Origin: Pseudogymnoascus verrucosus
Lineage: Eukaryota
DNA length: 64,000 nucleotides
Assembly (NCBI GenBank): GCA_001662655.1
Contig: KV460207.1
Direction: 5' to 3' (one strand)
The notes below the pieces were generated by a model. The model was not told the origin of the DNA. It saw only the letters and a program-made list of their open reading frames with translations, and searched no databases. A program made the translations under genes and the position numbers. Positions 17,809-46,350 of this stretch are shown in pieces. Every line of letters starts with the position of its first letter. Position 1 is the stretch's first letter.

Positions 17809-19118
17809 TTAGTTCGACCCTTCGAGATGCTCAGCCTTTGTCTTCCCTAATCTATTCTGAATTTCTTCGCACACAGCATTTGTCACCTCGGCCGTGGTCG
17901 CCGTCCCTCCGAGATCTTTAGTCATGATTCCCTTTTCGCAAACGGCTTCGACGATATCGAGGAGTTGATCTGCTGCCTCCTTCTCGCCTAGCCAGGTCAA
18001 CATCTCGCAAGCAGTCCAGAATGTCGCAACTGGATTTGCTGTCACCAAGTCAGTAACCATACAATATTTTACGTAGAAGGAGGAATACCGATTCCCATTC
18101 CAGTGATATCGAACGCAGAGCCATGGATAGGCTCGAACATGGAAGGGTTCTTTCGTGTGGGATCGAGATTGCTGGTGGGTGCGATGCCAATGGAACCAGC
18201 CAACGCCGCAGCAAGATCCGAAAGAATATCCGCGTGCTAATTGTATCGTTAGAACCTGCCCCAGTATGCATTCTCGTAAACCAATAACCTACCAAGTTTG
18301 TAGCAACAATGGTATCAAGCGTCTCCGGCTTTAGTACCATCCTCGTAGTCATTGCATCCACCAACATCTTATCAACCAGCACATCTGGAAAGTCCTTTGC
18401 CACATCTGATGCGACTTCGTCCCACATGACCATGCCATTCCTCTGCGCATTACTCTTTGTAACCACAGTGATATGCTTCTTCGGCCTGTTCTTGGCTGTT
18501 TCGAATGCAAATCGCATTATTCTCTCCACAGCGTGGCGTGTGAAAATCGAGACTTCAGTAGCAGTCTCCCATGGTTCACCGCGATGAGAGCGGCCGCCGT
18601 GACCGGCATATTCCCCTTCGCTATTCTCGCGGATTATCACCCAGTCCAGCTCGCCATTCTTGCAGTTTCGAAGAGGCGATTGAGTGCCTCGGAAGACCTT
18701 GGTGGGACGCACGTTCGCGTATTGTTGGAGGGGTTGGCAGATTGCGAGGCGGAGTTGCCATAGGGAGATGTGGTCTGGGACGTCTATGGAATCACATCAG
18801 CATATGTGATTTGGTTTGCTTTAAATATCTGGAAATTTGTGCTTAGTTTTACATACCTGGGGCACCAACAGCACCGAAGAGAATAGCATCAAACGTTTTT
18901 AACGTTGTCAGGGCATCGTCTGGCATGTATTTCCCCGTAGCTTTGTAAGTGTCGCTGCTCCAGTCGAAGTTCGTGAAATCCAGGTCAAAAGTGTTTAATG
19001 TCTCGGCAAACTTCTTCAACACGGTGACACCGGCGTCGATTACTTCAGGGCCAATTCCATCTGCTGGTATTGAAGCAATTCGATAGCTTGGGCGAGGATC
19101 AGCAAGAGAGGGACTCAT
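17809..19118 (-). CDS. Tartrate dehydrogenase/decarboxylase (D-malate dehydrogenase; beta-decarboxylating dehydrogenase family), 3 introns
   Basis: [69 protein letters not shown]; matches TtuC/YeaU-type enzymes rather than IPMDH. Confidence 0.9.
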
Positions 19119-19325: not shown

Positions 19326-19345
19326 CCCGGGGATCGTTTCTCCGG
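19326..19345 (+). promoter_or_regulatory. Shared cluster motif CCCGG-gga-TCGTTTCTCCGG in the dehydrogenase/kinase bidirectional promoter
   Basis: Read directly; recurs at 20784, 38183 and 38219. Confidence 0.6.
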
Positions 19346-19487
19346 CTGAGATGTGGGGTCGAAAACCAACTTGCCATCTTCACAAGAGAAGAAGGCGGCG
19401 AAAAACACACAGATAATAGTCCACATAACATAGCCACAATGTCAGACCTGGCCTAAAGACTCTTCACAATCCGTATATACAATCAAT

Positions 19488-20579
19488 ATGAGTCGAGACA
19501 GCCGAGCTCAGCTCGTTGTTGAAAGCGTACTGCCGTTCATTGAGGCCCACCGAAAGCTTGAGCATCAAGGCAATGCTAAAAAACCATTTATTTTAGGTGT
19601 TACAGGATTACAAGGTACGTGTAATTGTTTAAACTAAGTAAATATGAGTTTAACGAGAATTTATATTGTAGGATCAGGAAAATCACATTTGGCATCAGCA
19701 CTCGTCGTCGCTCTCTCCAAGGACCATAATTATAACACCATCGAGGTATCACTCGACGACTTCTACCTACGACATGACGAACAAATATCCCTTCGTACAC
19801 AAAATCCTTCCAACAACTTGTTTAAAGCTCGCGGTCAGCCTGGAACACATGATCCTGTCTTGTTGAAATCATTCTTCAGCCAGTTCTCAGATCCATTAGC
19901 GAAACATGTTTGGATTCCTTCATTCGACAAAGGCCTCTTCCAAGGGGAGGGAGACAGACTTCCACTATCGGAATGGAAAACCATTGATTGCCATTGTCCG
20001 ATCGATGTGGTGATTTTCGAAGGGTGGTGTGTTGGCTTCCAACCATGTCCTGACATCGAGGTGGAGAGGAAGAGAGTAGAAGCTTTACAGATTCGACATT
20101 TGAACGAACCCGAAAAGAGCATTATGGATTTGCCCCGGAGTCAATTTTGCACAACTACTTTGGGGGACCATAAGCTTGTGGATTTGCTCCATGTAAATGA
20201 CTGTCTACGCAGATACTCTGAAGATTTCATGGGTCCGCAGCATTTTGATTTTATGGTGCATCTTGATACCAATGACTTGGGTAACGTGTATACATGGAGG
20301 ATACAGCAGGAGCATGCACTCCATAGGAGGAAAGGTACTGGAATGACTGATGAGGCGGTAGTCAAATTCGGTACTGTTTTTTTCATTTGCCCCGTCGTGG
20401 ATAATTAAACTAATCTGATGAACGTTTCAGTACAGATATATATGCCAGCGTATGAATTATATTTGGACGGTCTACGATCTGGATTCTTTAGGGAGACTGG
20501 AAGTTTTATTAGGACAAAGGGACAATTGCAACTAGTCATGGACGTTGAGCGGAATGTTGTAGAATCAAAACTATTCTGA
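19488..20579 (+). CDS. P-loop kinase, GLYK/Tda10 (Ygr205w)-type D-glycerate 3-kinase; introns about 19615-19671 and 20372-20430
   Basis: PFILGVTGLQG|SGKS Walker A, SLDDFYL, RGQPGTHD, FDKGLFQGEGDR, VVIFEGWCVGF, WRIQQEH, GMTDEAV, YMPAYELY. Confidence 0.85.
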
Positions 20580-20783
20580 ATGAGCAATAAAATAATACGC
20601 GGCCTGTTTTCAATATGATCGATACTGTAGACTCGAAAGGAATCTAGCAAGAGAGTTGATATGACGGATTTATCGACCATAGTCCAACTTCACCCGTTCC
20701 TGTCAGCCAAGGCCCGGACCTGTGTGCGTCGTGCGGGGTTGCGGGGTACGACCTGCTCTGCTTCTCCCTCGTGGTATAAGCGG

Positions 20784-20803
20784 CCCGGCTTTCGTTTCTC
20801 CAG
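20784..20803 (+). promoter_or_regulatory. Shared cluster motif CCCGG-ctt-TCGTTTCTCCAG upstream of the MFS gene, flanked by CreA-like SYGGRG sites
   Basis: Read directly; GCGGGG/CCCCGC nearby at about 20733, 20741 and 20841. Confidence 0.55.
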
Positions 20804-21079
20804 ACCCACAACTACCCCATAGTCTTACCATACTATGCAGCCCCCGCTGGCGAACGTTTCCCCGCAGAGTCGTACCCCGTGGGAAAAAACCTGGGGAAAG
20901 CTTACAGCGAGGTAAGTGTCCCTGAATATGGGATGGCAGGCAGTTGTTTTCTATAAAACCTATGATGTCTCTCGCCAGTAAATATTAGACATGGCAATTG
21001 TCTGCTCTTGGACTACTATCTGCGAAATATCTTACATCACGTCAAATCTATCCGGATAGTGCAATATTAAGTCGATATC

Positions 21080-22694
21080 ATGAGTGAAAAACGCCCTCAA
21101 ACGCCCGATGACAAGGTCAATACGGCATCACACCTAGAGGACCCCGAGAGCCTCATGAAGGAACCTTTAGAAGATGTCGACTATTCGGGGGCCGTCGCAA
21201 AATCCGACCCAGCAGAGATTGCCTTGGTTCGAAAGCTCGATATGAGGATTATGCCTACTCTTTGGGCCATGTACTTTATGAACTATCTTGACAGGAACGC
21301 CATAGCGAACGCTCGGCTGAACGACCTTGAAAAAGACTTGGGTTTAGAGGGTACACAATACAATACATGTATTTCCATTCTCTTTGTGGGGCAAGTACAC
21401 CAAAATTTGATTTAGTACAGCTGACGACTGACTATTTAATAGGTATCTCTTAATGCAAATCCCCTCAAACATGTTGATGTCGTCAAGGAAAATCCGGCCC
21501 TCGATATACATGGCGGTTTGTATGGCTGGATGGGCCATTGTCGCGGCTTTAACAGCGCTGGTCAAGAATTATACTGGGCTCGTACTTGTCCGATTTTTCC
21601 TCGGGGTCCTTGAAGCCCCATTCTGTTTGTCTCCCATTGCTATTCCTATCGAGATCGGTCGGTGCTAACGATCCTTGAGACCCTGGTGCGTTATACTTGC
21701 TATCAGCATTTTACACCCGAAAGGAGGTTGCGACGAGAATAGCGATTTTATACTCCGGCAACATATTCGCGACCTCTTTCGCAGGTCTCATCGCAGCCGC
21801 AACGTTTGCTTCCATTGATGGCGCTCACGGATTCAAAGGCTGGCAATGGTAGGTTACTTTGAAACCAAATTCGAAAACTGACTAACCTCACCAAGGCTTT
21901 TTATTATCGAGGGAGTGGTGACTTTTGCCGTAGCCATTGCTGCAGCATACCTTCTTCCTGACTTCCCGCTCACTACGAAATGGCTCACTGAAGAAGAGCG
22001 AATTCTTGCTGACGCCAGAATCAAACGCGACACTGTCGGTCTAACGCCCGATAAAGGCGCGAGAGAGGGTTTCAAACAGGCTATTAGGGACCCTAGGCTA
22101 TACCTCCTATGCTTCATGCAAAACATGCATCTCTCCGCCTGTTCATTCAATAATTTCTTCCCTACTGTTGTTGGTTCTCTTGGGTATGACCGAACTATCA
22201 CTTTGGCTCTCACATGCCCGCCATATCTTGTGTCTGGATTTTTTGGCTACGCTATCGGAATCACTTCGGGGAAGTACAACGAGAGAACCTGGCATATCAC
22301 TGGGTGCATGGGAGCCGCTCTCGTTGGGTTTGTCATCTCCTGCCTAACGCTTAACACGCCTGCTCGTTACATATCTTGCTTCCTCTTTGCCAGCGGTGCC
22401 TATGCCGTCAATTCGGTTATTCTGGGATGGGTTTCGGCGACGTTGGGACAGACAACCGAGAAAAAAGCCGTGTCGCTCAGTATCGTCAATGTGGTTGCCA
22501 ATGCTTCCTATATCTACACGGCATATTTATACCCAAAATCTGATGGACCGAAGTACCTTACGGCTATGGGATCTAATGCTGGATTCGCCTTTGCTACAAT
22601 TGCTAGTGCGTGGGCTTTCAGGTTTTGGCTTATGAGGACCAATACCAAGATTAGACGTAGTGGGGATGAGTCGAAGGTATTTTACGCTTACTAG
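21080..22694 (+). CDS. MFS transporter, ACS family (TtuB/Tna1-like); introns 21391-21442 (GC-AG), 21625-21679, 21849-21895
   Basis: LVRKLDMRIMP, YLDRNAIANARL, YLLMQIPSN, RFFLGVLEAPF|YPG, GWQW|LFIIEG. Confidence 0.9.
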
Positions 22695-22925
22695 ATAATG
22701 GCATGGCAGTACTTGTTAAATACTCTGGTAAAAGAATGGAGGCTGCAGGCAAATAGTATGAGTTATTTATTTAAATACGATCAAGTTATGTCCTTGTATA
22801 TACTATGACTTATTCGTACAGTTGAAATCTCTACAGAGTATAATAATGTTCAGCTAAACACCCCGAGAAAGTGTCATATAGAGACTAAGGCAACGCTCAA
22901 TGACTTATTGCGCGCAGCTATCTAT

Positions 22926-25900
22926 TTAATTATGATAATTTTCATCATCCCAGACCATTGTAAGCAGCTGGACCATCTCTCTTCGCCCTTGACCTGAGGT
23001 GATATCGAATTTCTTATACGCCTTATAACATGTCGACATATCGGCTACTACGTGGTCGATACATGCAACTTTCCCAACCTCGCCTCCATTGCTGACACTT
23101 TCGTAATACGAGTCGGCCTTTGATCCTGAACCGTCACCACCATAGGGAGAAAACGAACAGTCAGAACCTCCTGAGAAATCGGGCAAGTCAAAGGAACTAG
23201 GAGGAAAGTGATATGTGGTATCTTCCGGGCCTTTTATCCCAGTAGACTGTATCCATGATGATTTGCCCCACACTGTCTCGCAAGTAGAAGAGCCGTCTGC
23301 AACGAACCAGTAGTATTGAGCGTGGTCGAAGGAGTCGCATTCTATAGAGCCACAATAATATTGCGCGAAATAGCACAAATTTAGAGTAGTGGTTGTTGGA
23401 GGTGGAGGGGAAGTCGTTGTTGCTGGAGGACGATTGGTTGAAGTTTTTGGCGGGCTGTTGGTGCAGCTGGCAGGCAGTAATGATGTTGTAGTTGGACAGT
23501 CCGCTACATCGACATATTGATAGATCCACTTGCAATTTACCAGGCTGCTTGTAACGCATTGCGGAGCGAGTCGTCGGTGGTACTTAGAGCAGTCATAGAA
23601 CCCCAGCGCGTCGCATCCCACTCGTTCTGTAAACTGACGATTAAGCTCGACGCGGCTTTCAAGGCAGCATCATCGGCAAGTTGAAAACTGGAATCAACGA
23701 AAGCTGCCATCTCTTCGGGATATGACACGCTCGTGGTAACAGTTGTGGTGGTAGTACTATCTGTCACGGTACACGCCTCTGTGATTTCACAGTGTGTTCT
23801 CGTTGTCGTTGACCACCCTGTTGTACCGGCTGGTACAAAACTACTCACAACCATAGTGCACAAACTCGCCGTCTCCAAAGACGTACAGTCGTTTGACTTG
23901 TTCTGCTCGACGTCGCCACATTTGCCATTGGGGCACATGCTGCAGTCGCCGCTAGGGCACCCCCCATTGCCACATGAGCCTGTGGTGCAACCTAACCCAC
24001 CACACTTGCTAAGAGGGCACCCACTAGAGCAGAGACCTAGGGCGCATCCGGGTCCGCCTCCACACCCAAACAGTCCACATCCACCCCCACAACCCCAGAT
24101 GCCGCAGCCGCCGCCGCAACCGAATATCCTACACCCAGACGAGCACCCAAACAGCCCACAGTTCTTATGACCGTAGTTTGAAGAACAAGTGGCGGTCGGC
24201 TTAGCACTTTTATATATGACTGTCGAAATGCCAGTGGGTGGTGGGGTGCTTACTGACACAGTAGCTTGCGGCTGGATCGTGACAACATGAGAAGTGGAGT
24301 AAAACACAGGAATGATAACTGCTGTGGATGAGGTTGACATTGCCCCTGATGTAGTACTACTACCTGCGGCCCCTGTGGCCCCCGTATTGAATGGGTTAGA
24401 AGGCATTGGAATCAAACTTGGAGGGAATACAGCCTCGCCGATTCCTAGTGTAATGCTGAATGGCTAAGGCATCACACTCTGAACAGCTGTGAAAGTCGCC
24501 GTTAGATCGTCGCCTTCGCTAATAAATACTGGCTACCACTTAATTTCGGTCGTCGTGACGATAGACACCGAGATAGTGGTTGTGGTGGTCACAATTTTTG
24601 TTCCTGATGAGACAAGCAGGGTTGTAGTGAGTGCAGGCCAATTGATAGTTGTTGTGAAACCCAGTGGGAACGGCGGCAGTATAAGCGTGCATGGCGGTAT
24701 ACAATTAACCTCTGGATTTGAACTAGACCAGATAGACGGTGGCACGTATATATCCTTACCAACGCTACTCCCATCCTCAAAGGTTTGGAGGTCGACCGCC
24801 CAATCTGTAGTCCCTCTGAAATTATAGGCTTGGAATATCTTTGTCCTTATGACTTTGTTATCGTCGGTTATATAAGCAATCCACTGGGTTTCGTCGTACA
24901 CTACGATGTCAGAGTAACTATCATCCCGATAAGACTGGACACTTCTAGTTCCCGCAATAATGGCTGCAATCTCGGCGTTTGCAATATAGCCTGGTGTTTG
25001 CGTGCAAGCCCCGCCATAAGCGCCAGACACCGGTCCTGTGTATGTACAATCACTACTAGTACAACCAGGCGTAGTCATCTAGAAAGAGCGGCCATAACTG
25101 GTAACGCCTACAACAACCTTGTCTGAAGGCACGCCAGCTTTAGTAACTATAGAGAGCGCACTGAGCGTCTCAGTTAAGTTAACATGAGAGCGGAGGCAGT
25201 TACCCCCTAAACAGCCATCGTCTGAATAAGGATGTCCATAATCCCACTAGCCATGAAGAACACAGGTCATAAAGATAATATAGTCGACAACATGACCGAT
25301 TGCTTGAATTGGAAAACCCTTGAGGTACCACTGAAAAGAAATAGTTAGCGCTGCTTAATGAAAATGCTTAATCTAGGAATCCACATACAAATCCTGCCGG
25401 GGCTGCTATAGAAAGCGAAGTACCATCAGGTAAACTGTTCCGTAGTTCACTAAGGAATAGGTAATAATTAGAGGCATCCTCAGCGGTTCCGTGGGGGATG
25501 CCTTCCATATCGGGCTCAGCTGGATACTCCCAGTCAAAATCAACACCGTCTAGATTATACTTCTTAACGAAGGCAACGACGTTAGCGATGAATGTATCCC
25601 GATTTGGCTCTTCCACAACTTGACGGAAAATAAAATAGGTACTAGGGTCGGTAGAGAAGGTCCATCCACCTATAGAAAGAAGTCAGCGGGAGAGCCATTA
25701 CACACTGTATAAGTCGGTCATTCTCAACATACCAAAAGAAAGAATCTTCTTGAAACCCGTCATCTGCACAAAAGCTAAGAATTGATCTTCGATGGAAGTA
25801 ATATCTACATTCCAGTCGAGGGTTATAGTCGCAAATGCAAGATGTATGTGTGTGTGTATCCGGTAGTGTCGAAATCCGTGACTTTCATATTTAAGCATGG

Positions 25901-27585
25901 TCGCGATGAGTCAAAGGCTTCAAAGTAACCTATCTTCCTAAACACAACAGGAGGCAGTCCGATGAGGATCTGGGTGCCATAGTTGGAGATACATCCGTTC
26001 TGATTAAGAGCAGCAGTCCCTGGTGCTCCAGCAGGCCCCTTGCTAGCAGTACAGAATTCGCCTGTCGTACCTGCAAAATGGCTAAATCAGCATGACATAG
26101 CAATAAGAGGGATTCGGAGATTTACATACCACACTCGCCCCAAATGTCACAGCAAGCGTTGAGTGCACACTCATTAAGAGTTGAAAGGTCTGTTCCTGCA
26201 GGGGGGGTCGGTGTCCCCGGGACCTGCGGTCCACAAACAGCATTAACTAATGGAGCGGGCATAGGCGGTGATCCGGTGCTAAGGCATATATTGCCACCAG
26301 CCTGTAAGTCAGCACAGCCCATCTAGCCCCAAGTTTTCGAATTAAAAGATTCGAGCAGCGCAGCGATGAGACTATATAGCCCTAAGAGCTGGCTACAGTT
26401 ATCGTCCTTTTGAACAAGGTAGCTATGACAGGTCCCATCGGAATTTGGCTTCGGGGCGAAATCAGGCAGTGTGCCGGATGAGCAGGAAAAGTGCTGGCCC
26501 TCTGTTGAACATAGTGCAGTGCTTGGATTGTACACAGTGAACTGCGCTGGGGTAATACCGCACTCAACAGCGAGTGAACCACAAGTGTCTGTGCTATGAG
26601 CCCTGACGGTGGTGCATGTTGCTCGAGGGTTCAAACCATGTGAAACCTGTTTTGCTGTAGATGTGTTGTTGCTTGGGCTTAGCAGACTTGGTATTAAGAG
26701 GGTGATATTTTTCTAGACAGTCGCTTCGTCATACTCAGTGACGCACTTTCCGTCTCTCCATGTCTTTACAGCATGCTGCACGGAAGATAGATTGGAGTTG
26801 GTGTTTGCCATAACTCCGAAAGCGAGTCTAGAGCTTTGGCCATTTGTTGCACAGAGTTGAACGAAAAGATTTTCTGATATTCCATTGGTCTCCACGTGAG
26901 CGCTGAATTGTTGAAGTACGGTTGATACAATTCCCTGGCTTTGGATTCCCAAACCAGCGTAAAGACCAAGAGCTGTCTGTCCAGAGTATGCAAAGGCTGT
27001 TGTGCTATTACAGCCGACTTCGCTCTGGCTTATATACCTTTCCATCTGTTGAGCAGCAGCAACAACGTCGCCAGCTGCTTCAGTGTTACTTGAACCTAGC
27101 CATGCTATTTGCAAAGATGCCTCTCCTTGCTTCAGGTTCTTGCTGGAACGACACGATTCATTCGTAAGTCTGCTAGGTGCGCTAAAGCTACTCTTATAAT
27201 CCGCAGTGCAAGATCGTATGCTCGCGTGGGTTCTGTGGTCGCCAAGTGGATTGTAAAGGGCAAAATCCAAGAGCATGGTTTGATTGCATAGTGCAAGGCG
27301 ATCAACATTTTGATATACCGTCCAGTTATTTGGTTTGCTTCCGTTACAGCTTGTGGGACAGCAGACTCTAGCCGTGTTGGATGTAGCAGACGGTTTCTTA
27401 ACTTGTGCTGGAACTGAATCTATACTTGGGCTCTGTATAGAGCTTATAGAGACCAGCGTACTGGTCGATACGGGGTGCGCCGCAAGGTAAGATTCCAATC
27501 TGCTATTTGCGGCTGTGCTGTGACCAGCGAATGCGACATAGGCTGCTAAGGCCTTAGCAACGGTTGTTCCTAAAGTCAGCCACAT
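22926..27585 (-). pseudogene. Subgroup C (killer-toxin-like) GH18 chitinase: signal peptide, LysM x2, CBM18, GH18, Gly/Cys repeats, C-terminal domain; disabled
   Basis: Catalytic LDGVDFDWEYP, CALNACCDIWGECG, LysM segments; in-frame TAG at 26713, 26323, 25247, 25079, 24533, 24464 and a frameshift near 23580. Confidence 0.88.
23930..24170 (-). repeat. Gly/Cys-rich coding repeats (GCGxFGCGGG) within the chitinase
   Basis: CGLFGCSSGCRIFGCGGGCGIWGCGGGCGLFGCGGGPGCALG. Confidence 0.75.
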
Positions 27586-28974
27586 CTTGACCTGAAAGCG
27601 CGGATAACGAAGAAAGTAAACGATAGACAGTAAGAAAGGAGTGGGAGAATAAGCACAAACAAAAGATATATTCTGCCTTTACAAGGGTGTGTGTGTTCAA
27701 GCTCTAGCCGCACTACTCTACGACGAAACGTATGGCAGATCTGGCTAGAGATTCTGACAAGGTCAAACTAATACAGCAAAAGCTAATAGTGGCTGAATTC
27801 TTGTCGCAAATCCCGCGCCGCGACAATTTTCTCTTTCATGGCGGTGCATTATTCCGCGGCGATAATGCAGCATCCACTGATGCAGACGACAAAAGGTCTC
27901 TTTCGGGGTTTGCGCCGCCGCCTAGTACGAGATACGTCGGCTCCACTTGGTATTCTTGCCTTTAGGGACCATGTAGAATTTTAACTTAGAGGCACTGAAT
28001 AATGAGCACTGCCCTCACATGTACATACATTATATGCAACTCGAAGGCCCACCACTTAGAGACCAATTGTTCGCACATAGAGTAATACATTTAGCCTGCA
28101 ACCACTTTCTGATAAAATAAGGGCGATCTCCGAAGGTGTTGTTGGACATGTAAATTAAGTTCACCTTGTTGTTGGTCCTACCTACAATATTCGCCCTCAG
28201 CTCAATTATCACTCGTGTTGGCTTTTTAGCGTTTGTGGCAGTGGGATGGACGCTCACTGAGACAGACCCACAAATCAACCAAACCTTGTTAATTAACTAC
28301 GGCCTAAGCGTCTTTAGGGGGGACAGTGACATTGAGGTAAGCAAGTATAAGCCAATCGTAAGCTACACAAAGTTAGCCAAGCTAAACTAAGCTTAGCTAA
28401 GCTCATTATCAGGCAGGCGTGGCGTATACAAAGGATCTTCGCGTGCTAAGCGCGGTCTAAGCGAGACCCTTGCAGCAATCCTTACCACCCCTCCCCACCC
28501 GGGCTGTTACTGCGATCGCCTAAATGGGATGCTAAAAGCGGATTTCCACAAACTTCAAAATAGCGCGACGTTACAATCATACAGTAGGGGCGACAGTAAA
28601 ATACGCTTATTGAAAATTCCTTCATCTGCGCAACCGAATTGTTAGAGAAGAAAGAGGAGCAAAGGACCAGGGACAGAAAAGGAAGCCGATTTAGGAAAGT
28701 TGACAGGCAAGGTGCTATACGGCTAACTGAGCGTGAACACAATATTGATTTTACGTACTTGCATTCGTAACTAGAGTGATGGCTAGAGATTTTATTGCCT
28801 TCTCTTTCTCGTATGAGTACTTTCGTAGCGTGGGGGAAGCATTATTGGGCGGAACACAGCTGCTGATGCTGATGTTGGATTATTTAGAATCCCAATTCCC
28901 TGATGCCATTAATATTTACAATTTCTACTCACTTCAGACTTATACGTCAGTCATTCGTGTGATTAAGTATCATC

Positions 28975-30429
28975 ATGCTGCTCTTACGCGTCATCTCCTC
29001 CTTCCTGGCCATCCCTCTGGTAGCAGGATTCCTTGTGGCACCTCTAGCGGGGTCAACACCTGCCCCCTAACTGTTAGCGACTGCAGTGGCTGGGTAGTTG
29101 TGACCTCATCAATGACTTGTACGTCAATTGCTACTACGTATGGAATAACTATTGCTAAATTCGAGGCAATGGTAAGTTCCTCCATTCTTTACACTACATT
29201 TCGATGGGGGTGTATACTAACACAGCTTGACTAGAATCCAATTCTAGGCCCATCTTGCCAACTCATAGACAGCTTCGCATTCTGCATCGAGGAGAATTTT
29301 GGAGGAGCAGCGCCTACCAGCGCAAGCGGTTGCACAACCCTTGTCACTATAACCACGCCAACAACCATAACCACTGCCACAACCACATCGGCAGGCAATG
29401 GCATCTCAACTCCTACACCCTATCAATCGGGCATGACAACGTCTTGCAACAGCTTCCGCTTGGTTATCGCTGACGACCAGTGTGGAACAATTGCCACCGA
29501 AGCTGGTGTGAGTCTCTGATTTCTATCTCTGGAATCCCGCCGTTAGGTCATCATGCGGCTCGCTATAGGCAGGATACTGTCTGTGCATTGGCGTCATCGG
29601 AGGGTCTACACCCACTAAGTCATTAGCACCTTCGACAACTTCTCCCGGAAATGACGTTTCTACTCCAACTCCTATACAGCTAGGAATGACGTCTAGCTGC
29701 GGTGCATTTCATCTCGTCCAGGCTAACGATCAATGTGGAGCAATTGTTACAAGTGCTGGAATAAGTCTCAAACAGTTTTGTGCTTGGAACCCATCCGTTG
29801 GTACAGCATGCTCTACACTATTCGCAGGAGATTATGTCTGCATTAGTCTTGCTCCATGTGCAGCAATCTCACCTCTACCGTCTAGAAACTATTATGGCAG
29901 AGTTAGACTCCCAGTCGCCGTAGTAGGCGTTAGAGCGCTCGTTTCATATAATACGGGCAGTCCTTATGTTTCCAGCCTAAGTGCCTGTTCTACAAAGTGT
30001 TCGAAAACACTTGCCTATACTAGCTTCTTTTTTGTCTAAGGAAACGAATGTCATCTACGATATGGTCCAAGTTCATTTTTTCCCACCGGAAATTCTGGAT
30101 CTAACCCATACTACGAAAGTTCCTGCTTTTCGTGCCCCTCGTCAGCCTCTTGTGCACTCGACGCGGCTGCAGCACCTTACTGCAGCCGAGTTGGAGTCCC
30201 GGTAGCAGCATCAAACGTTAGAGCCCTTACCTCATACGATACAGGCAGCCCTTATGTTTATAGTGTTGGTATCTGTGCGGCAGAGTGCTTGAATACACCT
30301 ACCTGTTCAAGCTTTTTTTTCGTTCAAGGAGAGAAATGCCATCTAAGATATGGACCCATTTCGTTCTCGCCTAATGGAAGTTCTAGATCCACTCCTTTCT
30401 ACGATATGGCTTGTTTCCCGACTTGTTAG
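28975..30429 (+). pseudogene. Secreted protein with three LysM domains and two C-terminal Cys-rich (PAN/Apple-like) repeats; disabled
   Basis: Signal peptide MLLLRVISSFLAIPLVAG; LysM units TPTPYQSGMTTSC...WNP...C; frameshifts near 29050-29080 and 29515; stops TAG 29566 and TAA 30037. Confidence 0.85.
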
Positions 30430-30953
30430 ATGATTGCATTCTATCCATTGGTGTTGTGGGTGTTTGATGTCTAGCCAACTTTTACAGATGAGACATTGCC
30501 CTGTCACCGAAACGCAGGATTATGGTAGTAAGGATTAATATAGCATATATATTTTGCAAATGAAGCCACAGCTACATGATAAATACCAGTGTGTACTATA
30601 ATCTTATTCATAGCGAGTGGGTGCTGTTTGTGGCATATGGTGATTATGTACAATCGTCTGGCTGTTCACTTCATGATTCCTTGTTAATGATCCCTGCTGC
30701 AAAATCGCGCATTTGGCCCGATCGCAGTGAGCGACCCAACGATAACTAGAAATAAACAGTCCCGTGACAATTGATTTGTCATCTACCTTTACCTACTATA
30801 GTTCGAACCAAGACGCACCATTGAAAGCTTCGACAGTCTCTATCACCGTTACTATCTTAACCTCCCCTCCATAACGTATACCAAAATCAAATCAGGACAT
30901 CGAGCACTTGCCATCTCGACCTAAGCGATAATATTTTATTGTTCCATTTCTTA

Positions 30954-32976
30954 ATGTTTAAACATGTCCCAAATCCGGCAACAGCCTCCAACTCGGAAAG
31001 GTCTAATGCTCCATCAACTCTATTTTCGCTCAATCCAATGCCACCTGACACGCGTATCGGGCCCGCAGTTGACGGCATCATTTTTTATCGAAACGACCCC
31101 ATTAGGCATACGTGTATAGTTGAGCGGCAGAGTTCTAATTCGCAAAAATACGTCCTAAGCATGATCTGGCTTCCACTTAAGCCTGGCTACGATGTTCTTA
31201 ACTGTCAGAGCGCGGCAGCGCGGTTATGGCATGCGTCTCTCGATTATATTCGTTGCATTCGTGGCTGCGTTGAACTATGTTGGGGTCAGGACATCGAGGC
31301 GTCTGAACCAGCGTTGGTGTTGCTTATACAGTGGGCGGCTGTTTGGGCATGGAAAAGCTTCCAACAGTCGCCTGGCGTGTCGCTCATTTCAGGCATGCTT
31401 AGGGGAAATCCACTTAACAGGACAGTTAATCTCCACCCTGAATACCTCTATGGCCCCGAAAAGATCATGGAGATTGTCTTTCTATCTATTGACCCGGGCA
31501 CCGAAACTACTGTCATCGAAGGGGATCTAATACATCTGCAGGCTGCAGCTGTTAAGAATACCAAAGTCGATTACTACACAAATATAGCTGAGCGTTACGC
31601 ATCATTCAATCCCCTCTCTTCCGTCGGCCAGGAAAGAGCGAGGAAGCTGCCAGATGTTTTGACAAGCCTAGCAATCTGGAACGAAACAGACTACTACAAA
31701 GCCTCCAGCAACCAGGATCTCACTAATGCCGCCCAACTACTACTATCAAAATCCGTATGTCTCACTAGATTCTCAGCCAAGTTGTCTCGCGTGGACCTGG
31801 ATCCAGTGTATAACTTCAGACCCTCGCCCGTCATTGAATGCACAGCACGAAGCACGGCCGATCTCCTCGCACTCCCTCACTTCCGTCGACAGGGTAGCTT
31901 CCCAGGTGGCCTACGTACCAAATCATATTCCTTCGCTCCGCGTATGGGCGAGATGAATGAGTTTCACGAGTCGGTGCCGATGTATGCGCCTATTAAGACA
32001 TCAGACATTAGGAAGGCAGAGAAGTTATGGGTGGGTGAGGATACGAGACCGCTAGCTCTGGACATGTTTGAAATCAGAATCGTGCCTACTTCCGGCATGG
32101 TAAAAAATGAGGACATGATTATGCTCTCCAGTGATCTCTTTGATCAAGTTGAACAATTGAGAAGGGAGATAGAGTCCTACGAGGGTTGTCAAGCTGTTTT
32201 AGTTGCACATGTGGACTCACTCACATCAACGCCTAGTGTTGACATAAAGACTGATATATTTCAGCTGCTCGTCTGTAAGTACAAATTAATTCTGTTGCAG
32301 CACTATGAATGCTAACCTATTGTTCTCTTTTAAATGTTCATAGTCTGGGCTGTCAACTCTCTGGCACTACCAACACAACGAGAAAAATCTAGAAAGAGAG
32401 TCGCAGACGCTATGGAGTTTACTTCTAAAGTGCAACCGCCCGTTTTGGTACACGAAATGCCTGATGTATCACATATCTTTAAAACTGAGTCTCCAAAAAT
32501 GCCGGCATACGAAATTACGCACTTCTTCGTACCAACTGGAGACAAAGATCTTTTTCAACAAGCCTTTAGTGACTATACTAAGTAAGTCTAGCCTCAAATA
32601 TAAGAAGAACCTCTTCATACCCTCTGCACATGTAAATCAGCCGAGCTAACATTAACCCAGAATCAACAAGCTCGAGTACGGCCCACACATTGTAGGAGGC
32701 TACGGACCTAAACCAATGCAAAACTACGGCTGCGGCTGGTCCGTGGGCACTTTCTCTCGTGATGGCCACAGTCAACAGATGGCCTGCTATACGAGCGTGA
32801 GATGGTGGCGTTGTGCCTCCGAAGCGGCGGGGTGGTACGCCCATTTCGTTAGCCAGGTTAAAGAAGGAGGATATGAGAGGATGGGCTTCCAACTCGATGC
32901 GCTGCGGTTGATTGCTAGTGGGGGTGCGGAATCGAGGTTTCTGACAATATTTGAACCAGTGAAGAAGATGGATTAG
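30954..32976 (+). CDS. Hypothetical protein, possibly repeated dimeric alpha-beta barrel (ABM-like) units; introns about 32275-32343 and 32582-32660; start uncertain
   Basis: 458-codon open frame plus spliceable exons; WHASLDYIRCIRGCVELCWGQDIE...LLIQW pattern resembles fungal barrel proteins. Confidence 0.6.
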
Positions 32977-34602
32977 GGGAGGTATGAGGGGATACCCATC
33001 TATTCACTCGTGTTATTAGATTGGTTACTAGTACGCTTGCATTTTGTCATCTGTAGCCCTTAACGTCTTGGGCTGTAAATCACGAAATCTACAATGCTCG
33101 ATGTAAAAGATATGTATTTGCCATGAGCCCTCTGTTTTACCACTTGCTGCATTCTATTGCAAATGAATTGATAGGCCAAAAATAACTTACTGCTGTAGAA
33201 TGGGAAGAGTCGGGGACGATAGAAAGGCAGAACTAGGTTTTACGAACGATGATGATTAAAATACCGTAGATAGCTATGTAGTCTTTCAGTATTGGTTGGT
33301 ACAGAGGTGAAGCGCGGCGCTGGAAGGATTTGCAAAGGTCTGTGCTCTAATTACATAGCCCTGGCCGCTACTTCCGATCGACACGATGCATCTACTTTTG
33401 GGGGCATGCCCCGCCGTTTGATGTTGGACGTAGAATCCCCACTACGTGCCATCGTAGCGGCCCCACATCCCTGGATAGGTACTCTAGGCTGTGGAGTCGT
33501 CGGCCTCCGAGACAGCAGGCGGACGTCCGGACATTCCCGTAAGATGAAGTGTGCCAGGACCCATATTGACTAATTAGGTTGGAAATACGAGGCCCAACAT
33601 CATATCTACGGCTATTTATGGATCGCAGTATACGCCAAAGTCTAACAATGTCGGCTGATGGGTTCGTTATATACTAATCGCGGTCTGAGGCCCCCAATAC
33701 TGAGTCGTATGAGAAAGCTTGTTAAAAATGCTTTTATAGCATAAAACCCTTAGTTAGTAGCAATGCGATACCCCTAGCTATTGTAGCAACGGCTGAAATC
33801 AGGGCTGAGACTAAGTTCAAGCTTCGTCCGAACTATAGGCAGCACCACTCTTTGGCGTTTGAGATGACAGGTTGAACCTAGTGTTAATATACCTACTTAC
33901 CGCATCCCTACTAGCTTTCTACATACTAACGGGAGATTAACCTGATTTATAGTACATACTTCGATACGCATGATACCTAATAAAGTCCGACTAGCTAAAC
34001 CAACAACGACAGGGGACGCGAGTATTGAGTTACTGTCGAGAGAAAGGTGGTGTGGTTACAGTGCAGTTAACGATATATATGCGCTACCATGTGGGTATGG
34101 AGCTTCGTATAGAATTGGGGCTATAGTGATGTAAAGTATTTCCCTTCTGCTTCTCGAATGGGTACTCTCCTTACATTACTTGCTATGATGCTTTTGTGGT
34201 GCTTTTTCTGGTAGGATGAATGTGGGTGAGGCCGCAGGGGCTGTATAGGAGAAGTATATAGGGATAGCGGCGGCGTAGGGGTGTGTATGTGGGGGGGGAG
34301 GGGGTGTAGGCCGACGGTGAATGAGTACAAAAAAACACCCCTGCTAGGTAATAACTAGAGTGCACAGAAAGGCTCGCAAATAGCCAAAGTAGGATAGCAT
34401 CGCCAGCCTCGCAGACTTTTTATTCTATGTCCGACCAGAAAGCTTAACTGCTTTAGGATCGTGGAAGGGGGCCATGTTTGAGTAGTTCGAAAATCCTTTC
34501 TAATTTATTATTTGTAATCGCTAGACTTCCATATTCAACTACTACTGGTGCCCCCGAGCAACTGTAAATTTTTGCATCACTTCCATTTTTGGCAACTCAT
34601 CC

Positions 34603-36390
34603 ATGATGTCTCCATTCTCTGTATTTAGGATCTCTCTCCTTACGTGGATGCACTGGGCTATCCTACTCGGAAGCCTAATAGAGAAAACATGGGGCTCACC
34701 AATGAATACTTCGTCGCGCCTTGCTGCGAGGGGCCTCTTTGGTCCAGCAAACTGCAATAGCCAGGAATTTTTAAGTCTGATGGCCTCATTGAATGATGCT
34801 GAGGACATGGTAAGCAGCCTTTGTGTCCTTTGTTAGTCTAAACAAACGATAGAGGCAAATTAACTCTATATATAGCTGAAGGTTACAATTGATAGGACAG
34901 CAGACCTATACAACTGGTTAAATACGAGACCATCATCTTTTTCCGGGAGGAATAGCCTTCAGCTGTCCACTCTACGCACCTTCGAAGCTATTTTTGGCGA
35001 GGTGTACTATGGTTCTACAAACCCACAGGGAAATTCTGCTGGTCTTGCGCGTATAAAGAAAGTTGGAAGTCAGTGCTGGCATTTCAAATAAGTTGAACTT
35101 CCTTTCTTAAATCGAGAGAGCGTTGAGATGCAACATTATTATTAGTGTGGGCAGGAACCTTTTTACTGTTTCACATTACAGTATTCAGCGTTTGTCTTAA
35201 CTAAGTTATGTTATAGATACCGCAACTGGACTCGTGTCGCAGTTCGATGATTTGCTATCTTTGAAAGTAGATATCTTCTGCGACGACTCCTGGCTACTTG
35301 ACACTGACCCCCAAGGAAATCCACCTAATCGAGACAGTAAGTTAATATTTTTAAACTAAAGGTGCAGGGGTTATCACTAAGATGCGTAAAGCTCTGAGAA
35401 GATAACCTTCTGTTATTGCATCACTGTTTTTAGAGAAACAGTATTGAGGATAATTGATTTCCTTTAGAGATGCTCTTGCAATATCCAAAGATACTACTGT
35501 AACTAATTATTACAGAGGGCAACTTTCAGTACTTCAACCCCCATGAAAATACTTAGGAGAATTTCAACAAACTCGGCGGAAGCTGCCGTGATAGCAATTT
35601 ATACGGTTTCGTTTTGTCTGCTTCTCCCGGAAATAACGATTATTTGACTCTCTGTCAAAGCAACTGGCTTGCAGACATTAATAATGGAAACACATTTCGG
35701 AAGCTGTCCGGGAACACGTATACTAATGGCCAAGGTTATATCCAAAGCTTCAAGTCTCTTGCAGCTAGCACAATGGTACACGAACTAAGCCATTGTCAGT
35801 CTCTTCTTGGAGCTGGCAATAATTGGTGTGAGTAATCCAAACACCAAACTATCTAATGCGGACTGTTTAGTTACCATGGTTAATTAATAAAATAATGTTA
35901 GTGGACGAAAAATGCGAATCTTTAACAGGCTCCCCAGCATATGGCTGGCCTTGCGTAACACACATTGCAAAGTCTGACCCATCAAGTGCTGTTAGAATTG
36001 CTGGTTTGCAACCCCCCCATCCCCCCCGGCTCTTCATAAAAATCCGGGATTCACAGAATAAAGCTAATATGACAACGCAGATAATTTCATGTTTTTTGTT
36101 ATAGGTGAGGACAGTCTCATCCTATTTTATTCCCTTAAAACGGGTACTCCTTTCAAAAACGGTTATTTCAAATCGGCCCCTCTAAGGCCAATGTCAAGCA
36201 CTGGAATTGTTCCAAGTGGAACTCATTCGTCGGTTTCATAGTTGGCTGATGGAAGTATGCCGTGTGTATTTGAAAAAGGCATACCCAATACTCTCAACTA
36301 CTTGGTATCCGACTAACAGATGCAGCCATGTATATGGCAAACAACGATTGGTCTTCTGGGTTTTCGCGCATCCTTTGGACGCTTAGATAG
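34603..36390 (+). pseudogene. Multi-exon secreted zincin-like (HEXXH; M35/Lys-N-like) metalloprotease, probably disabled
   Basis: Signal-like N-terminus, STMVHELSH, AYGWPCV, DNFMFF, AMYMANNDWSSG; in-frame TAG at 35554. Confidence 0.65.
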
Positions 36391-36691
36391 TGGCATGGCT
36401 ATATTGTTGGTGTGATAATAGTAGTAGTCGAACATCTCGTTGCTGACTCGAGGGTCGTCACAAAGGGGGATCTGATAATATATCGGTCACTGCGAGTAAC
36501 ATTGGTGGATTATGAAATACTAGTATTCTCTGCAAGACTCAGATAAAGCTTATATTTTGCGTCACATAGAAATTACACGGACTAGACGTACACGTTTTAT
36601 ATTTGTGTTACGTATCGCACAGTTTAAACTAAGCACCACATTATAAGTATATACTTACTTATAAGATAAACTCTACGTGATTTATATTATA

Positions 36692-37937
36692 TTATAATCT
36701 ATCAAATTTAGCCATCATGGTGAGCATATCCAACAACCTAGATGAATACGCCCACTCATTATCGTACCATGCTAAGATTTTGAAGAACTTCCCTTCGTTA
36801 GTTCCAGTTAAATAGTTTCATTATAGGCACATTACCTTGGGGTTCAGCTCAACGCAAGCTTTCGCATCCACTACGCAGCTATGAGGATTGCCCTGAAAAT
36901 CACAGCTGACTAGCTCACTGTGCTCGACTGTTAACACGCCTTGCAGAGGACCCATTGAAGCCAGTTCCAGTTGTGTCAGGATCTCCGCTAGCGAAGTTTC
37001 GTGTTCGAAATTTATTGTCAGGTCAACAAGCGACACATTGTTGCTATAGACGTGTTAGCAACATTCACGACAGTAAGACCTGTATGCTGACGTTGGAACT
37101 CGGAGAGAGATGCCAGTCATCTTCCCAGCCAGTTCTGGAAGCACAGTCGAAACTGCCTTTGCTGCACCAGTTGTGGTCGGAATAACATTTCCCAGCACGG
37201 CCCGCCCGGCTCGACGATCTCTTTTGCTGTATCCATCCAGTACAGGTTGTGATCTTGTAGAGGCATGGACTGTGGTCATAAGGGCCTGAACAATACCAAA
37301 TTTGTCGTTCAAAGTTTTTGCCAGAGGGGCAAGACAATTAGTAGTACAGCTCGCGCATGATACTATACTTGGAGGGTTTATGATGGGATACTGTGAGGTG
37401 TTGACACCGTAGACGAATGTAGGTGCGTCCTTGCTCGGGGCAGAGATAAGTACCCTCTTTGCCCCGGCATGCTCGATGTGAAGACTGGCTAGTGATGAAG
37501 TTGTAAATTTGCCTGTGCTTTCGATGATATACTCCGCTCCTGAAATCGTCCAGTCCAAAAACTTGGGATCTCGTTCCGAAGTCAAATGCACATGTTCTCC
37601 ACAGACAGACAGGGTGTTTGCGTCTACAGCAAAAACAGCGTTTTGTTTGACATCCACACTCCGGCTTAGAGGACCATGTGTAGAATCAAAGAGGATTTGA
37701 TGAATGATATCGGCTATCGAGGCGCATGTGTGGTTGATTGCCACTATGCGTATATCTTTTCGAGATAGAGAGTTTCTGAATGCGACGCGGCCTTCACAGA
37801 TGTTAGATTGACATAACCGTCAGAGAGGTTTTACGTGGCGACTGACCAATTCTTCCCCATCCATTGATCCCTACTTTGATAATCTCTTGCGGAACTAATG
37901 GTAAGAGAGATTCCCTTCCGTCCAAAGTCGCGGGCAT
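36692..37937 (-). CDS. Divergent glyceraldehyde-3-phosphate dehydrogenase (GDP1-like, possibly NADP-accepting), 3 introns
   Basis: KVGINGMGRIG, FDSTHG, IESTGKF, ASCTTNCLAP, TTGAAKAV, LAWYDNEW. Confidence 0.92.
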
Positions 37938-38182
37938 AGTGAATTAATTCACAGAAAATATTTAAAATTCAATAATGGGTGGAGTGAAAGGTAAGTTATG
38001 TTCCCACGATCTATATTGAAGTAAACACCGGACTCTACTTATCTCAACCCCCGGGCATAGACCATCGTGATTAATTGATACATTGTGTTTTTTGATAATT
38101 GTGAGCCTGTGCTGTGAGTGAGGCCGCCTTCTGTCTCCAAATTTACCCCGCACTAGAATCTGGCCAGGTTTGCTTAATAATC

Positions 38183-38237
38183 ATCGTTTCTCCGGAGTCC
38201 CACGTCGTCCGCCCTAAACTGGAACTCGTTTCTCTGG
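38183..38237 (+). promoter_or_regulatory. Two copies of the shared cluster motif (ATCGTTTCTCCGG at 38183; CTGG-aac-TCGTTTCTCTGG at 38219) in the GAPDH/Zn2Cys6 bidirectional promoter
   Basis: Read directly; 13/13 identity with 19333-19345. Confidence 0.6.
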
Positions 38238-38277
38238 ACCAAACCCCACTTAGTTGAACGTTGGTCCCTTGACAACA

Positions 38278-39268
38278 ATGACATGCGGGAAACGATCCCC
38301 GCAACGAAGAGATCGTAAAAGATCGCAACGCCGCTGGTACCAAACCTGTGATTTTCCAGGGGTTTCTTTCATGCGGCAAGGACGAGGCAAAGTGTTGACG
38401 ATTGATGAGCACGTGATGGAAAATCAAGGGAGTTCGTGTGAGCCTTGCAAAAGGAAGAAATGCAAAGTAATCCCCATCCCAGGTATGCTTTGCGTGACCC
38501 TTCGCGCTAATTTGTGGACAGTGTGATCGTCAATTGTAGGCTTGTGCAAATGAAACGACAAATATATTAGCTGACTTCAAGCCAGGCCATCGTGCGAACA
38601 ATGTCAGGCGGCAAAACTGGAATGTAAATATAGCGAAAGCAACAAGAGGTGCGTTATGTGATGTGCTGGTAGTTTGATGTCTTAAAGCTGATATCTCGCA
38701 GAGGAATCCCAACAGGTTACCTTGGCAATTTAGAACAGCGGCTTAATGAGACCGAAGCAGCACTGTATACTGCTCTGGCCCAGTTGAGAAGTCTGAAAAA
38801 TGACCAACATTTTGTGAACCTGCCGAATTCTACTTCTTTGTTCATACCTCCAGATTTGGCCCCGCGAGAATTAAACGCAAATAAAATGTCCCGAATGGCA
38901 GAATGGAAAGAACACTCGTTGACAGGTTCTGGTGCCATCGAAAGATGGCGAGCGTTCTTTAGCAAATATGAAATCCCTCCTCAAGGTAGTCGTACATGAT
39001 TGGAACGAAACTTTGTCAATACTAACGATGCCTAGCCGATGAGAGCGTGACAGTAGACGGGCCACCCATTTATTCAAGTCCTACCATAGATGTCCAGCCC
39101 TTCGAAAATATCCAACTTAGCAGCCACGTTACTCAGAATACACTCGATAGTAGATGGGAGCAAGCGCCGAGCACGACGGTAGCTACACTAGAACAAGGAC
39201 GACAAGAAGAAGCCATACTAAATCCTTCGAAACAATTGTCATCAACACATCGATATACTTATTATTGA
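38278..39268 (+). CDS. Short Zn2Cys6 protein (binuclear cluster + coiled coil, no MHR); introns 38467-38521, 38536-38585, 38649-38701, about 38987-39035; start uncertain
   Basis: Spliced CEPCKRKKCK|CDRQL|PSCEQCQAAKLEC, then KR|GIPTGYLGNLEQRLNETE; 14-nt microexon 38522-38535. Confidence 0.8.
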
Positions 39269-41522: not shown

Positions 41523-42225
41523 GGCAAACGAAAGAAAGACTGACTCAATGGTATTTTTTAGATGGCATGGTAATTAGAGAGTGGGCAGCTTCATAATATT
41601 CACGTTCGTCGGTCAATGGCAAACCGGCACGGCGTCGCTCGCACGCCATCAGGCTTTCAATGACAACATACGCGAGCACAATCCTTCTCGTCCAGCTCCA
41701 AACGACCCCGCGAACATTACTCCCAACATGCGCTACAGTTCCATGTCACGCCATGTTATCCCCCGCCCATCCTCATCCCCACTCTCATATATTTCTTATC
41801 TCTCTCCACAGATACACGAGGCACCGATCGGCCGGCCCTGAACGTTTTCTTCCCATCTACCTGATTAGTTGTGGTGGTCATGCCCCACGCCGCACGTTGT
41901 GCTGGTGGGGTCTCGGATGGCGAGCTATCCACGAGGAATCACGTACGACCAAGGAACAGGGAATCATCTGGACCCATCATCGGCAATTGAGAGCTGTTTA
42001 TGCCCGTCCCTGCATGGTTGGGAAAGATGGGAAATCATCCTTGGATGCCGGCAGCTCACTTTTTTTTCCCACCCCACTCTCGAGACACGCCTACTTTGGT
42101 ACCTTTCTCATATAAATTATTGATGCAATCACATCGAATTTCCACGTTGTCAAATATATACCCAAGCTGAAACTATTGGCCTTTTGAACTGGAGGCATCT
42201 GGCTTGAAAGTCAGCTAATTACACC

Positions 42226-46340: not shown

Positions 46341-46350
46341 GTGGCGCCAT
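46341..46350. promoter_or_regulatory. CYS3/MetR-like bZIP site GTGGCGCCAT (one mismatch to ATGRYRYCAT)
   Basis: Lies in the divergent Seo1-like/monooxygenase promoter. Confidence 0.35.

Follow-up and report, generated by a model that had tools for sequence, protein, structure and literature searches.

The window analysed here, a 64,000-nt stretch of contig KV460207.1 of the soil fungus Pseudogymnoascus verrucosus, carries six genes that probably form one cluster for growth on tartrate. They encode a large regulator (TF), a dehydrogenase, a kinase, an MFS transporter, a GAPDH and a small Zn2Cys6 (Zn) protein. The dehydrogenase (17809–19118, minus strand; 376 aa, four exons) most probably belongs to the TtuC/DmlA family of tartrate dehydrogenases/decarboxylases, with TIGR02089 as best match for all four exons and 3FLK as best PDB match. 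Its exon scores (94.4, 245.2, 74.8 and 64.4) add up to ∼479 against a cut-off of 470.4, a sum that only approximates the whole-protein score. The TtuC family also contains D-malate dehydrogenases, which TIGR02089 does not separate from the tartrate enzymes; the linked glycerate kinase favours tartrate over D-malate as the putative substrate. This kinase (19488–20579, plus strand; 324 aa, three exons) is a class III D-glycerate 3-kinase of the GLYK/TDA10 type. It has the P-loop and full-length homology to solved GLYK enzymes: P0121, which is 98% identical to it and was used for the PDB search, matched 6CKG (residues 13–322, E 3.6e-46) and also 1ODF and 7XPC. Class III glycerate kinases yield 3-phosphoglycerate (3-PG) according to PMC2063504. 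The MFS transporter (21080–22694, plus strand; 486 aa, four exons; PF07690) is of the anion:cation symporter type and matches TIGR00893 partially, under the cut-off. No hydroxypyruvate reductase or hydroxyacid dehydrogenase was found among the 38 window ORFs scanned, and use of L-tartrate would therefore need an unlinked gene. The C-termini of the kinase and of the GAPDH clade described below showed no consistent PTS1 for peroxisomal targeting.

A short motif connects the promoters of these genes. The four strings noted in the initial annotation are present at 19326, 20784, 38183 and 38219, as it had claimed, and all lie within three promoters of the cluster. Their core, TCGTTTCTC, occurs exactly four times when the two strands of the window are counted (19334, 20792, 38184 and 38226), each copy being intergenic and inside the cluster. 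The remark that no other copies were noticed by eye holds for the core, but weaker variants of the motif exist at 38284–38302 (minus strand; CGG-N10-CCG, 13 nt in common with site 1) and at 20847. A search of the promoter of the large regulator (14520–15161) revealed no core. The bare count of TCGTTTCTC in the window is unremarkable (four observed versus ∼0.7 expected; rank 485 of 842 among nine-mers with at least four occurrences); the significance of the motif is in the location of its copies and the length of the extension beyond the core. The three promoters have a 10-mer in common, which was reached in 0 of 2000 dinucleotide-shuffled triples and in 12 of 2000 random window triples. For the 19-nt consensus CYGGNNNTCGTTTCWCYRG we obtained three exact matches in the window and none in 100 shuffles, a comparison that is partly circular since the pattern was built from the sites. 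At two mismatches there were again just three matches, a number reached by 2 of 100 shuffles. With a leave-one-out PWM three of five sites score above all other window positions, site 38219 is equalled by one other position and site 38177 by seven.

The Gal4 site consists of inverted triplets 11 nt apart (CGG-N11-CCG), and the motif reads as a putative site of this type with an asymmetric TCGTTTCW core. Both triplets are perfect in site 1 (19327–19345, plus strand), located in the divergent dehydrogenase/kinase promoter 209 nt from the dehydrogenase ATG and 143 nt from the kinase ATG, and in L001, the orthologous MFS promoter of another fungus. Site 2 (20785–20803, plus strand), in the MFS promoter, has one mismatch and site 4 (38219–38237, plus strand) has two. 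The copy at 38183 corresponds to site 3 (38177–38195, plus strand) in the divergent GAPDH/Zn promoter; its core is present, but the 5' half-site is missing and only the 3' half-site remains. Site 4 follows 42 nt past site 3, and in sequencing run X6 the 42 nt between them are absent and one site is retained. Among the window sites only site 1 has two perfect triplets and site 3 has just one half, a pattern that a factor reading the core would explain no less well than a Gal4-type dimer. The CYGG-N11-CYRG layout initially proposed describes a conserved Zn2Cys6-type site, yet the layout alone is unspecific, with 17 strand-hits in the window; plain CGG-N11-CCG has 19 matches. In L001 (1003–1021), 17 of the 19 bases of site 2 are kept, and the longest word common to the intergenic DNA of the window and of L001 (14 nt) is the motif. 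The expected conservation in orthologous promoters was found in the single promoter examined; the footprint comes from one promoter because a metagenome scan with the kinase confirmed one locus (L001) among 39 candidate stretches.

Between the MFS and GAPDH genes lies a 13.7-kb chitinase/LysM block (22708–36383). It contains a GH18 chitinase gene with many stops (minus strand), a LysM/PAN protein in pieces (plus strand), a 484-aa ORF without a Pfam family, and small fragments. A 16-nt direct repeat flanks the block. Its left copy (22692–22707, plus strand) begins at the MFS stop codon and is a candidate insertion boundary; the right copy (36384–36399, plus strand) is identical at 15 of 16 positions, a match reached by 1 of 1500 random zone pairs. 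The insert had been placed at about 22.9–36.4 kb, which is right for its right end, but the left end lies earlier and the span is about 22,692–36,399. No recombinase or transposase Pfam family was found in the insert ORFs scanned (part of 53 ORFs), nor was a tyrosine recombinase or transposase, as in a Starship or transposon, present at the element end, where only the 16-nt direct repeat was seen. The insert has no strong RIP signature. We suggest that the block was inserted at the MFS stop and left a short duplication, and that co-regulation would survive the insertion since each promoter keeps its own site.

That one six-gene cluster was split by this block, as first proposed, is supported by unbroken tag runs in relatives. 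By locus tags, 5 of 11 Pseudogymnoascus assemblies have the six genes without the insert, among them F-4515 (consecutive tags from 08847, TF, to 08852, Zn), F-4517 (accessions KFY97024 to KFY97029, uninterrupted) and F-4513 (tags 08538/08540/08542). In F-4520 the TF and GAPDH genes share one contig of 14,797 bp, which is too short for the interrupted span of 22.8 kb. This state is read from tags and one short contig, and linkage generally from tags rather than DNA. The anticipated position of the MFS gene directly beside GAPDH agrees with the tag runs of relatives, but the joined form was seen in none of the four sequencing runs compared (24 listed), all of which cover the insert. Linkage of GAPDH to cluster genes, also claimed initially, extends across three fungal classes: by locus tags the GAPDH or the Zn gene adjoins cluster genes in Leotio-, Eurotio- and Dothideomycetes. 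Examples for GAPDH are Coniosporium (W97_06417/06419) and P. angulare (N7478_005874/005871) by tags, and A. saccharolyticus (PYH49444/49439), Phlyctema (KAL3419264/65) and Tricladium (KAH8653248/49) by accessions. The TF and Zn genes adjoin in Bisporella, Rhexocercosporidium and Mollisia, that is, for three of six named non-Pseudogymnoascus Zn orthologs. GAPDH is an accessory member of the cluster, because it is unlinked in Bisporella, where GAPDH, kinase and TF/Zn are on three different contigs, and is not among the listed matches of several lineages with kinase or TF (none for A. niger, A. fumigatus or Cadophora among the matches listed).

The GAPDH itself (36692–37937, minus strand; 364 aa, four exons; 'NHT' clade) is divergent. 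Asp32 is replaced by His and Pro188 by Tyr, so it lacks the Asp32/Pro188 pair of canonical NAD-specific enzymes, while catalytic and phosphate residues are retained. Judged from the alignment it falls into a fungal clade of its own (D32H, P188Y/F), with His32 in 50 of 51 members and Tyr or Phe at 188 in all 51, versus Asp32 in 39 of the 40 other rows. The clade was picked on residue 188 and agrees with a 51-row clade in a tree built by a quick method, from which 29 of 120 matches shorter than 300 aa were left out. It has fixed changes at 32, 181, 188 and 193. In the general GAPDH numbering of catalytic (Cys149, His176) and phosphate-site residues, these two as well as S148, T150, T179, R194, T208 and R231 are kept in 50–51 of the 51 rows. 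The type I model TIGR01534 (cut-off 367.2) is reached by P0001 (369.6), which is 99% identical to the window GAPDH, and P0242 is just under (366.7). Look-ups in a protein atlas returned generic GAPDH clusters only. Second GAPDHs without Asp32 are known from GapB of B. subtilis and Gdp1 of K. lactis, which are NADP-dependent or gluconeogenic paralogues; the cluster GAPDH differs from them in its signature (His32/Thr33 and Tyr/Phe188), and the bulky residue at 188 would not obviously favour NADP. The initial description of GAPDH as acting downstream of 3-PG has to be revised, as carbon enters at 3-PG and GAPDH is then relevant in the gluconeogenic direction. Since carbon enters below GAPDH, the accessory enzyme is most likely gluconeogenic. 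The clade includes BCIN_09g05560 of Botrytis cinerea, a fungus reported to catabolise grape tartrate (PMC7970118).

The large regulator (15162–17432, plus strand; 703 aa, four exons) matches the annotated VE01_00652 product of P. verrucosus with 100% identity and is an MHD-only protein, with Fungal_trans (PF04082) and without Zn2Cys6. A Zn2Cys6 domain was found in none of 120 orthologs, and the profile gave no PDB relative. Its assignment to the regulon stands insofar as it is a cluster gene, but it has neither a motif copy nor a DNA-binding domain. The small Zn protein (38416–39268, plus strand; 214 aa, five exons; PF00172) had been given a start at 38278; orthologs begin at 38416, which is the most likely start. 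It comprises a Zn cluster, a Gal4-like linker, a coiled coil, a two-helix Trp motif, a disordered tail and a C-terminal aromatic motif, and no MHD. Gal4 is its best PDB relative, the linker aligning with one gap; helix positions, and only these, were taken from a single-chain model of low mean pLDDT (57). Atlas look-ups gave generic Zn2Cys6 clusters only (scores 0.86 or less). Of 43 relatives 42 have 62–316 aa and are thus too short for an MHD. The CeGAL arrangement, Zn2Cys6 and MHD in one chain, is seen in neither family, as the TF has PF04082 only and the Zn orthologs PF00172 only. Because one lacks Zn2Cys6 and the other the regulatory domain, the two proteins look like complementary halves that probably act together. 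When the profiles of the two families were compared, no homology was detected (probability 0.3), which gives no support to the fission of one ancestral gene.

Taken together, we regard the locus as fairly likely to be a tartrate-type catabolic regulon of Pseudogymnoascus with a two-part regulator, a gluconeogenic GAPDH and an inserted block. This reading builds on the motif, the footprint in one ortholog, the gene content, the domain split and the linkage by locus tags as directly established; to these it adds substrate, binding, heteromer, GAPDH direction and insertion mechanism by inference. The MFS protein would import tartrate, and the dehydrogenase/decarboxylase would convert meso-tartrate directly to D-glycerate; alternatively, tartrate may pass via oxaloglycolate and hydroxypyruvate to D-glycerate, the reductase being encoded at another locus. 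D-glycerate would then be phosphorylated to 3-PG by the class III kinase, and flux towards gluconeogenesis would most likely be carried by the accessory GAPDH paralogue, whose cofactor preference may have changed. Induction would need both regulator proteins: the small Zn2Cys6 protein, as a coiled-coil dimer, would bind the Gal4-type CGG-N11-CCG sites, and the MHD-only protein would contribute sensing and activation. A site in the GAPDH/Zn promoter would establish positive feedback, the MHD gene being without a site. A much bolder version, which we hold to be doubtful, is a Pezizomycotina-wide two-part Gal4-type activator, in which the Zn-only protein docks on an MHD-only tartrate sensor via its conserved Trp-helix or C-terminal aromatic motif. 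The heteromer would read an asymmetric CGG-N3-TCGTTTCW-CCG site, first defined here, and control a pan-Dikarya GAPDH clade (His32/Tyr188) that is dedicated, gluconeogenic and possibly NADP(H)-using, for acids entering at 3-PG.

The same cluster and motif could also be served by a Gal4-like factor from an unlinked gene, or each regulator could act on its own, the MHD-only protein for instance as a repressor or as a sensor for a different partner. The deviation of sites 3 and 4 from CGG-N11-CCG would fit this, as would the case of the MHD-only regulator FarD, whose mechanism is stated as unknown (PMC10512302); however, the adjoining regulator genes in three of the six named Zn orthologs, the agreement of the Gal4-like linker with the N11 geometry and the complementary domain loss make it rather improbable. 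Similarly low is our estimate for another substrate, such as D-malate, meso-tartrate alone or a different C4 hydroxy acid derived from the breakdown of ascorbate or sugar acids, with a GAPDH acting on another aldehyde or serving as an inhibitor-resistant copy. Such a reading draws on the inability of TIGR02089 to split tartrate from D-malate enzymes, on the lack of a reductase among the ORFs scanned and on the fixed changes in the GAPDH clade, but D-malate is converted to pyruvate and needs no glycerate kinase, and the clade keeps all catalytic and phosphate-site residues, with P0001 above the TIGR01534 cut-off.

That the motif is a chance or local-duplication relic and GAPDH and Zn mere neighbours appears very unlikely, given the footprint in L001, the linkage in three fungal classes and the site retained in X6, even though the 9-mer is not over-represented across the window, 12 of 2000 random triples reach the shared 10-mer and sites 3 and 4 may have arisen by tandem duplication. 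We also considered a missed 5' Zn exon of the large regulator, as annotation errors account for more than 90% of MHD-only entries according to PMC10141177 and a possible acceptor site lies just 5' of its ATG. This was rejected as hardly credible: 14300–15165 contains a single CxxC but no match to the Zn-cluster pattern, the pattern is absent from all 120 orthologs, no Cys precedes the conserved FxGSxSG motif in 74 of 81 aligned orthologs, and the Zn gene, 21 kb downstream, cannot be the 5' exon here.

The regulon with a two-part regulator has parallels in known systems. In A. niger, a trt cluster reportedly comprises a transporter, a tartrate dehydrogenase, a glycerate kinase, two interacting transcription factors (TrtR1/TrtR2) and a hydroxyacid dehydrogenase. 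It would share the first three functions and the two regulators with the cluster here, which holds the divergent GAPDH instead of the hydroxyacid dehydrogenase; we know of no defined binding site for it. Although no description of a fungal tartrate cluster was found in the literature searched, this parallel makes the initial suggestion of an undescribed system doubtful. A kinase homolog (51%) occurs in A. niger, and in A. brasiliensis (section Nigri) the TF and kinase genes adjoin. The ttu operon of Agrobacterium vitis likewise contains a transporter, a dehydrogenase and an additional glycolytic enzyme, and has a LysR regulator and a pyruvate kinase where we find a Zn2Cys6/MHD pair and GAPDH. 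It converts tartrate via hydroxypyruvate/glycerate to phosphoglycerate and has its glycerate kinase gene in the cluster, in which it resembles the route proposed here, but it is bacterial, and its class II MOFRL kinase (TtuD) forms 2-PG while the kinase here is of class III and 3-PG-forming (PMC2063504). FarD of A. niger is reported as MHD-only, with PF04082 and no Zn2Cys6 in all orthologs, like the 703-aa regulator, and as required to induce a catabolic pathway; it acts beside the complete factor FarA, whereas the candidate partner here is a Zn-cluster-only protein of the same cluster (PMC10512302). Zn cluster, linker and coil of the Zn protein align best to Gal4; unlike in Gal4/Lac9 and the CeGAL family (PMC10141177), DBD and MHD are on two genes and the spacer has a conserved asymmetric core.

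Genuine MHD-only proteins are few according to PMC10141177, and the locus gives a concrete candidate binding site and partner for one of them, FarD's mode of action being described as unknown (PMC10512302). Should the A. niger cluster be as described above, the split regulator would already be known, and novelty would be limited to the site, the GAPDH clade and the insert. The Pseudogymnoascus cluster places a widespread and uncharacterised clade of fungal GAPDHs in the context of a pathway, and it suggests that a catabolic cluster may tolerate a large insertion because each promoter has its own site. A natural DBD/MHD split, if true, would allow the sensing of ligands by the middle homology domain to be studied separately from DNA binding, and the two-part regulator could then serve as a tartrate-inducible switch.

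The window is fungal, and the spliced products for the GAPDH-like protein and the regulator match annotated Pseudogymnoascus verrucosus proteins with 100% identity. All six spliced gene models built for the cluster are intact: a regulator of 703 aa (15162-17432, plus strand), tartrate dehydrogenase (19118-17809, minus), kinase (19488-20579, plus), MFS transporter (21080-22694, plus), GAPDH (37937-36692, minus) and a 214-aa Zn2Cys6 protein (38416-39268, plus). For the dehydrogenase, TIGR02089 is the top family in all four exons and 3FLK the top PDB match. The kinase matches solved D-glycerate 3-kinases in the PDB, a class described as yielding 3-PG (PMC2063504).

The initial annotation placed one motif in the dehydrogenase/kinase, MFS and GAPDH/Zn2Cys6 promoters, and this was borne out. 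The core TCGTTTCTC has four copies in the 64 kb (sites 1-4 at 19334, 20792, 38184 and 38226), always in intergenic DNA of the cluster; it was not found in the promoter of the large regulator. The count of the core nine-mer is ordinary (rank 485 of 842 among nine-mers occurring at least four times in the window), but its placement is not, since the three promoters have a 10-mer in common, a result reached by 0/2000 shuffled and 12/2000 random triples. The extended 19-mer gave three exact matches versus none in 100 shuffles, in a partly circular test. One orthologous locus came from metagenomes (L001, kinase 69% identical), and its promoter had played no part in defining the motif. Its intergenic DNA aligns poorly with the window, and the longest common word, of 14 nt, is the motif. 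The L001 site retains 17 of 19 bases, and its triplets form a perfect CGG-N11-CCG. This promoter backs the motif independently, though a single promoter is thin evidence. The proposed Zn2Cys6 layout finds support in L001, but the end geometry alone is frequent in the window (17 matches to CYGG-N11-CYRG and 19 to CGG-N11-CCG) and site 3 lacks the 5' half. Sequencing run X6 lacks the 42-nt stretch that separates site 3 from site 4, so that one complete core remains; run X8 has a shorter replacement sequence there. Further short conserved blocks lie in the MFS promoter (20857-20866, 20893-20901, 20950-20957; L001:1065-1170), where both loci share a CCCCGC box, which we take to resemble a CreA site, a GGGGAAAGC block and a TATA box.

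We conclude that the six-gene cluster with its motif is coherent and real. Its linkage was read from locus-tag numbering and contigs, not from aligned DNA, in 11 Pseudogymnoascus assemblies in which at least two listed genes span the insertion point. Numbering is gapless exactly as expected for an uninterrupted cluster in three (F-4513, F-4515, F-4517) and one tag short in two (F-4520, 23342-1-I1); the 14,797-bp contig of F-4520 is too small for the 22.8-kb interrupted span. WSF 3629 has one additional tag, F-103 four and P. verrucosus six, and the cluster halves are on separate contigs in three assemblies. Outside the genus, Coniosporium, P. angulare, A. saccharolyticus, Phlyctema and Tricladium have GAPDH within five tag numbers of a cluster gene, and in five more genomes GAPDH and a cluster gene sit on contigs of equal length. 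Uninterrupted numbering in relatives favours the earlier proposal of a six-gene unit split by the chitinase/LysM insert; against it, all four sequencing runs compared keep the insert, and in Bisporella GAPDH is on a contig apart from the cluster genes.

The insert is bounded by a direct repeat of 16 nt (15 identical), at 22692-22707 from the MFS stop codon and at 36384-36399, spaced 13,692 nt apart; such a match was reached by 1/1500 random zone pairs of equal size. With a 3-nt gap, the match continues a few bases farther upstream, which makes the right copy resemble a duplicated MFS 3' end. The simplest reading of the repeat is a duplication produced at insertion. Without the segment, the stop codons of the convergent MFS and GAPDH genes would be ~306 nt apart. 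The cargo consists of a stop-ridden, subgroup-C-like GH18 chitinase (22929-27678, minus), a LysM/PAN gene broken into pieces, an orphan ORF of 484 aa (30861-32315, plus; Pfam gave no match with E of 1 or less) and fragments, among them one with an HExxH motif (35557-35835, plus; weak M35 peptidase match, E 0.08). No recombinase was found among the insert ORFs scanned. Runs differ over the chitinase through insertions as well as deletions of 658 and 1844 nt, so the gene is decaying independently in several strains. Raised depth in X6 over 30.5-33.2 kb, around the 484-aa ORF, suggests further copies. The short element at 28519-28598, matched by several other contigs with G-rich loose ends in 4/4 runs, is probably a small dispersed repeat.

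The cluster GAPDH falls into a 51-row fungal clade (SH-aLRT 100) covering ascomycetes and basidiomycetes in a quick tree of 91 of 120 matches. It shows ~50% identity to canonical enzymes and retains the catalytic and phosphate residues, with Asp32 replaced by His and Pro188 by Tyr/Phe. Since carbon enters at 3-PG, its role is most likely gluconeogenic; a preference for NADP is possible, though not implied by residues 32 and 188. A second member of the GAPDH cluster in WSF 3629 (P0252, VE00_10543; 722 aa, another contig) is either a fusion or a mis-joined model.

The 703-aa regulator contains only the MHD (PF04082). PF00172 or a Zn-cluster pattern was found in 0/120 orthologs (best 120 of 499 matches), and no missed Zn-cluster exon was evident at the gene. 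MHD-only entries are described as mostly errors in PMC10141177; FarD is a published precedent for an MHD-only protein, presented in PMC10512302 as of unknown mechanism. A branch point and acceptor-like sequence immediately 5' of the regulator ATG (15100-15122) probably mark a 5' UTR intron. The 214-aa protein has a Zn cluster and a linker whose alignment to Gal4 needs one gap, together with a coil, a Trp-helix pair that is conserved, and a terminal aromatic motif. Its 43 relatives span 62-316 aa, except for one weak match of 2742 aa. Among the 10 whose genomic context was examined, six named Zn proteins are from outside Pseudogymnoascus; three of these adjoin the MHD gene and one adjoins GAPDH. 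We infer that the two regulators cooperate. Homology between the two regulator families was not detectable.

Adjoining the cluster, 39585-55704 holds two luciferase-like and two FMO-like monooxygenases and MFS/UNC-93 transporters, a gene run like a sulfur- or nitrogen-scavenging region. The tartrate operon of A. vitis works alike, but the cluster is not a member of that type, its kinase being of a different class. A tartrate cluster with two interacting regulators has reportedly been published for A. niger, which we consider probable; our literature search did not find it. Should that cluster exist, the new elements at this locus would be the candidate site, the accessory membership of the GAPDH clade and the insert with its bounds.
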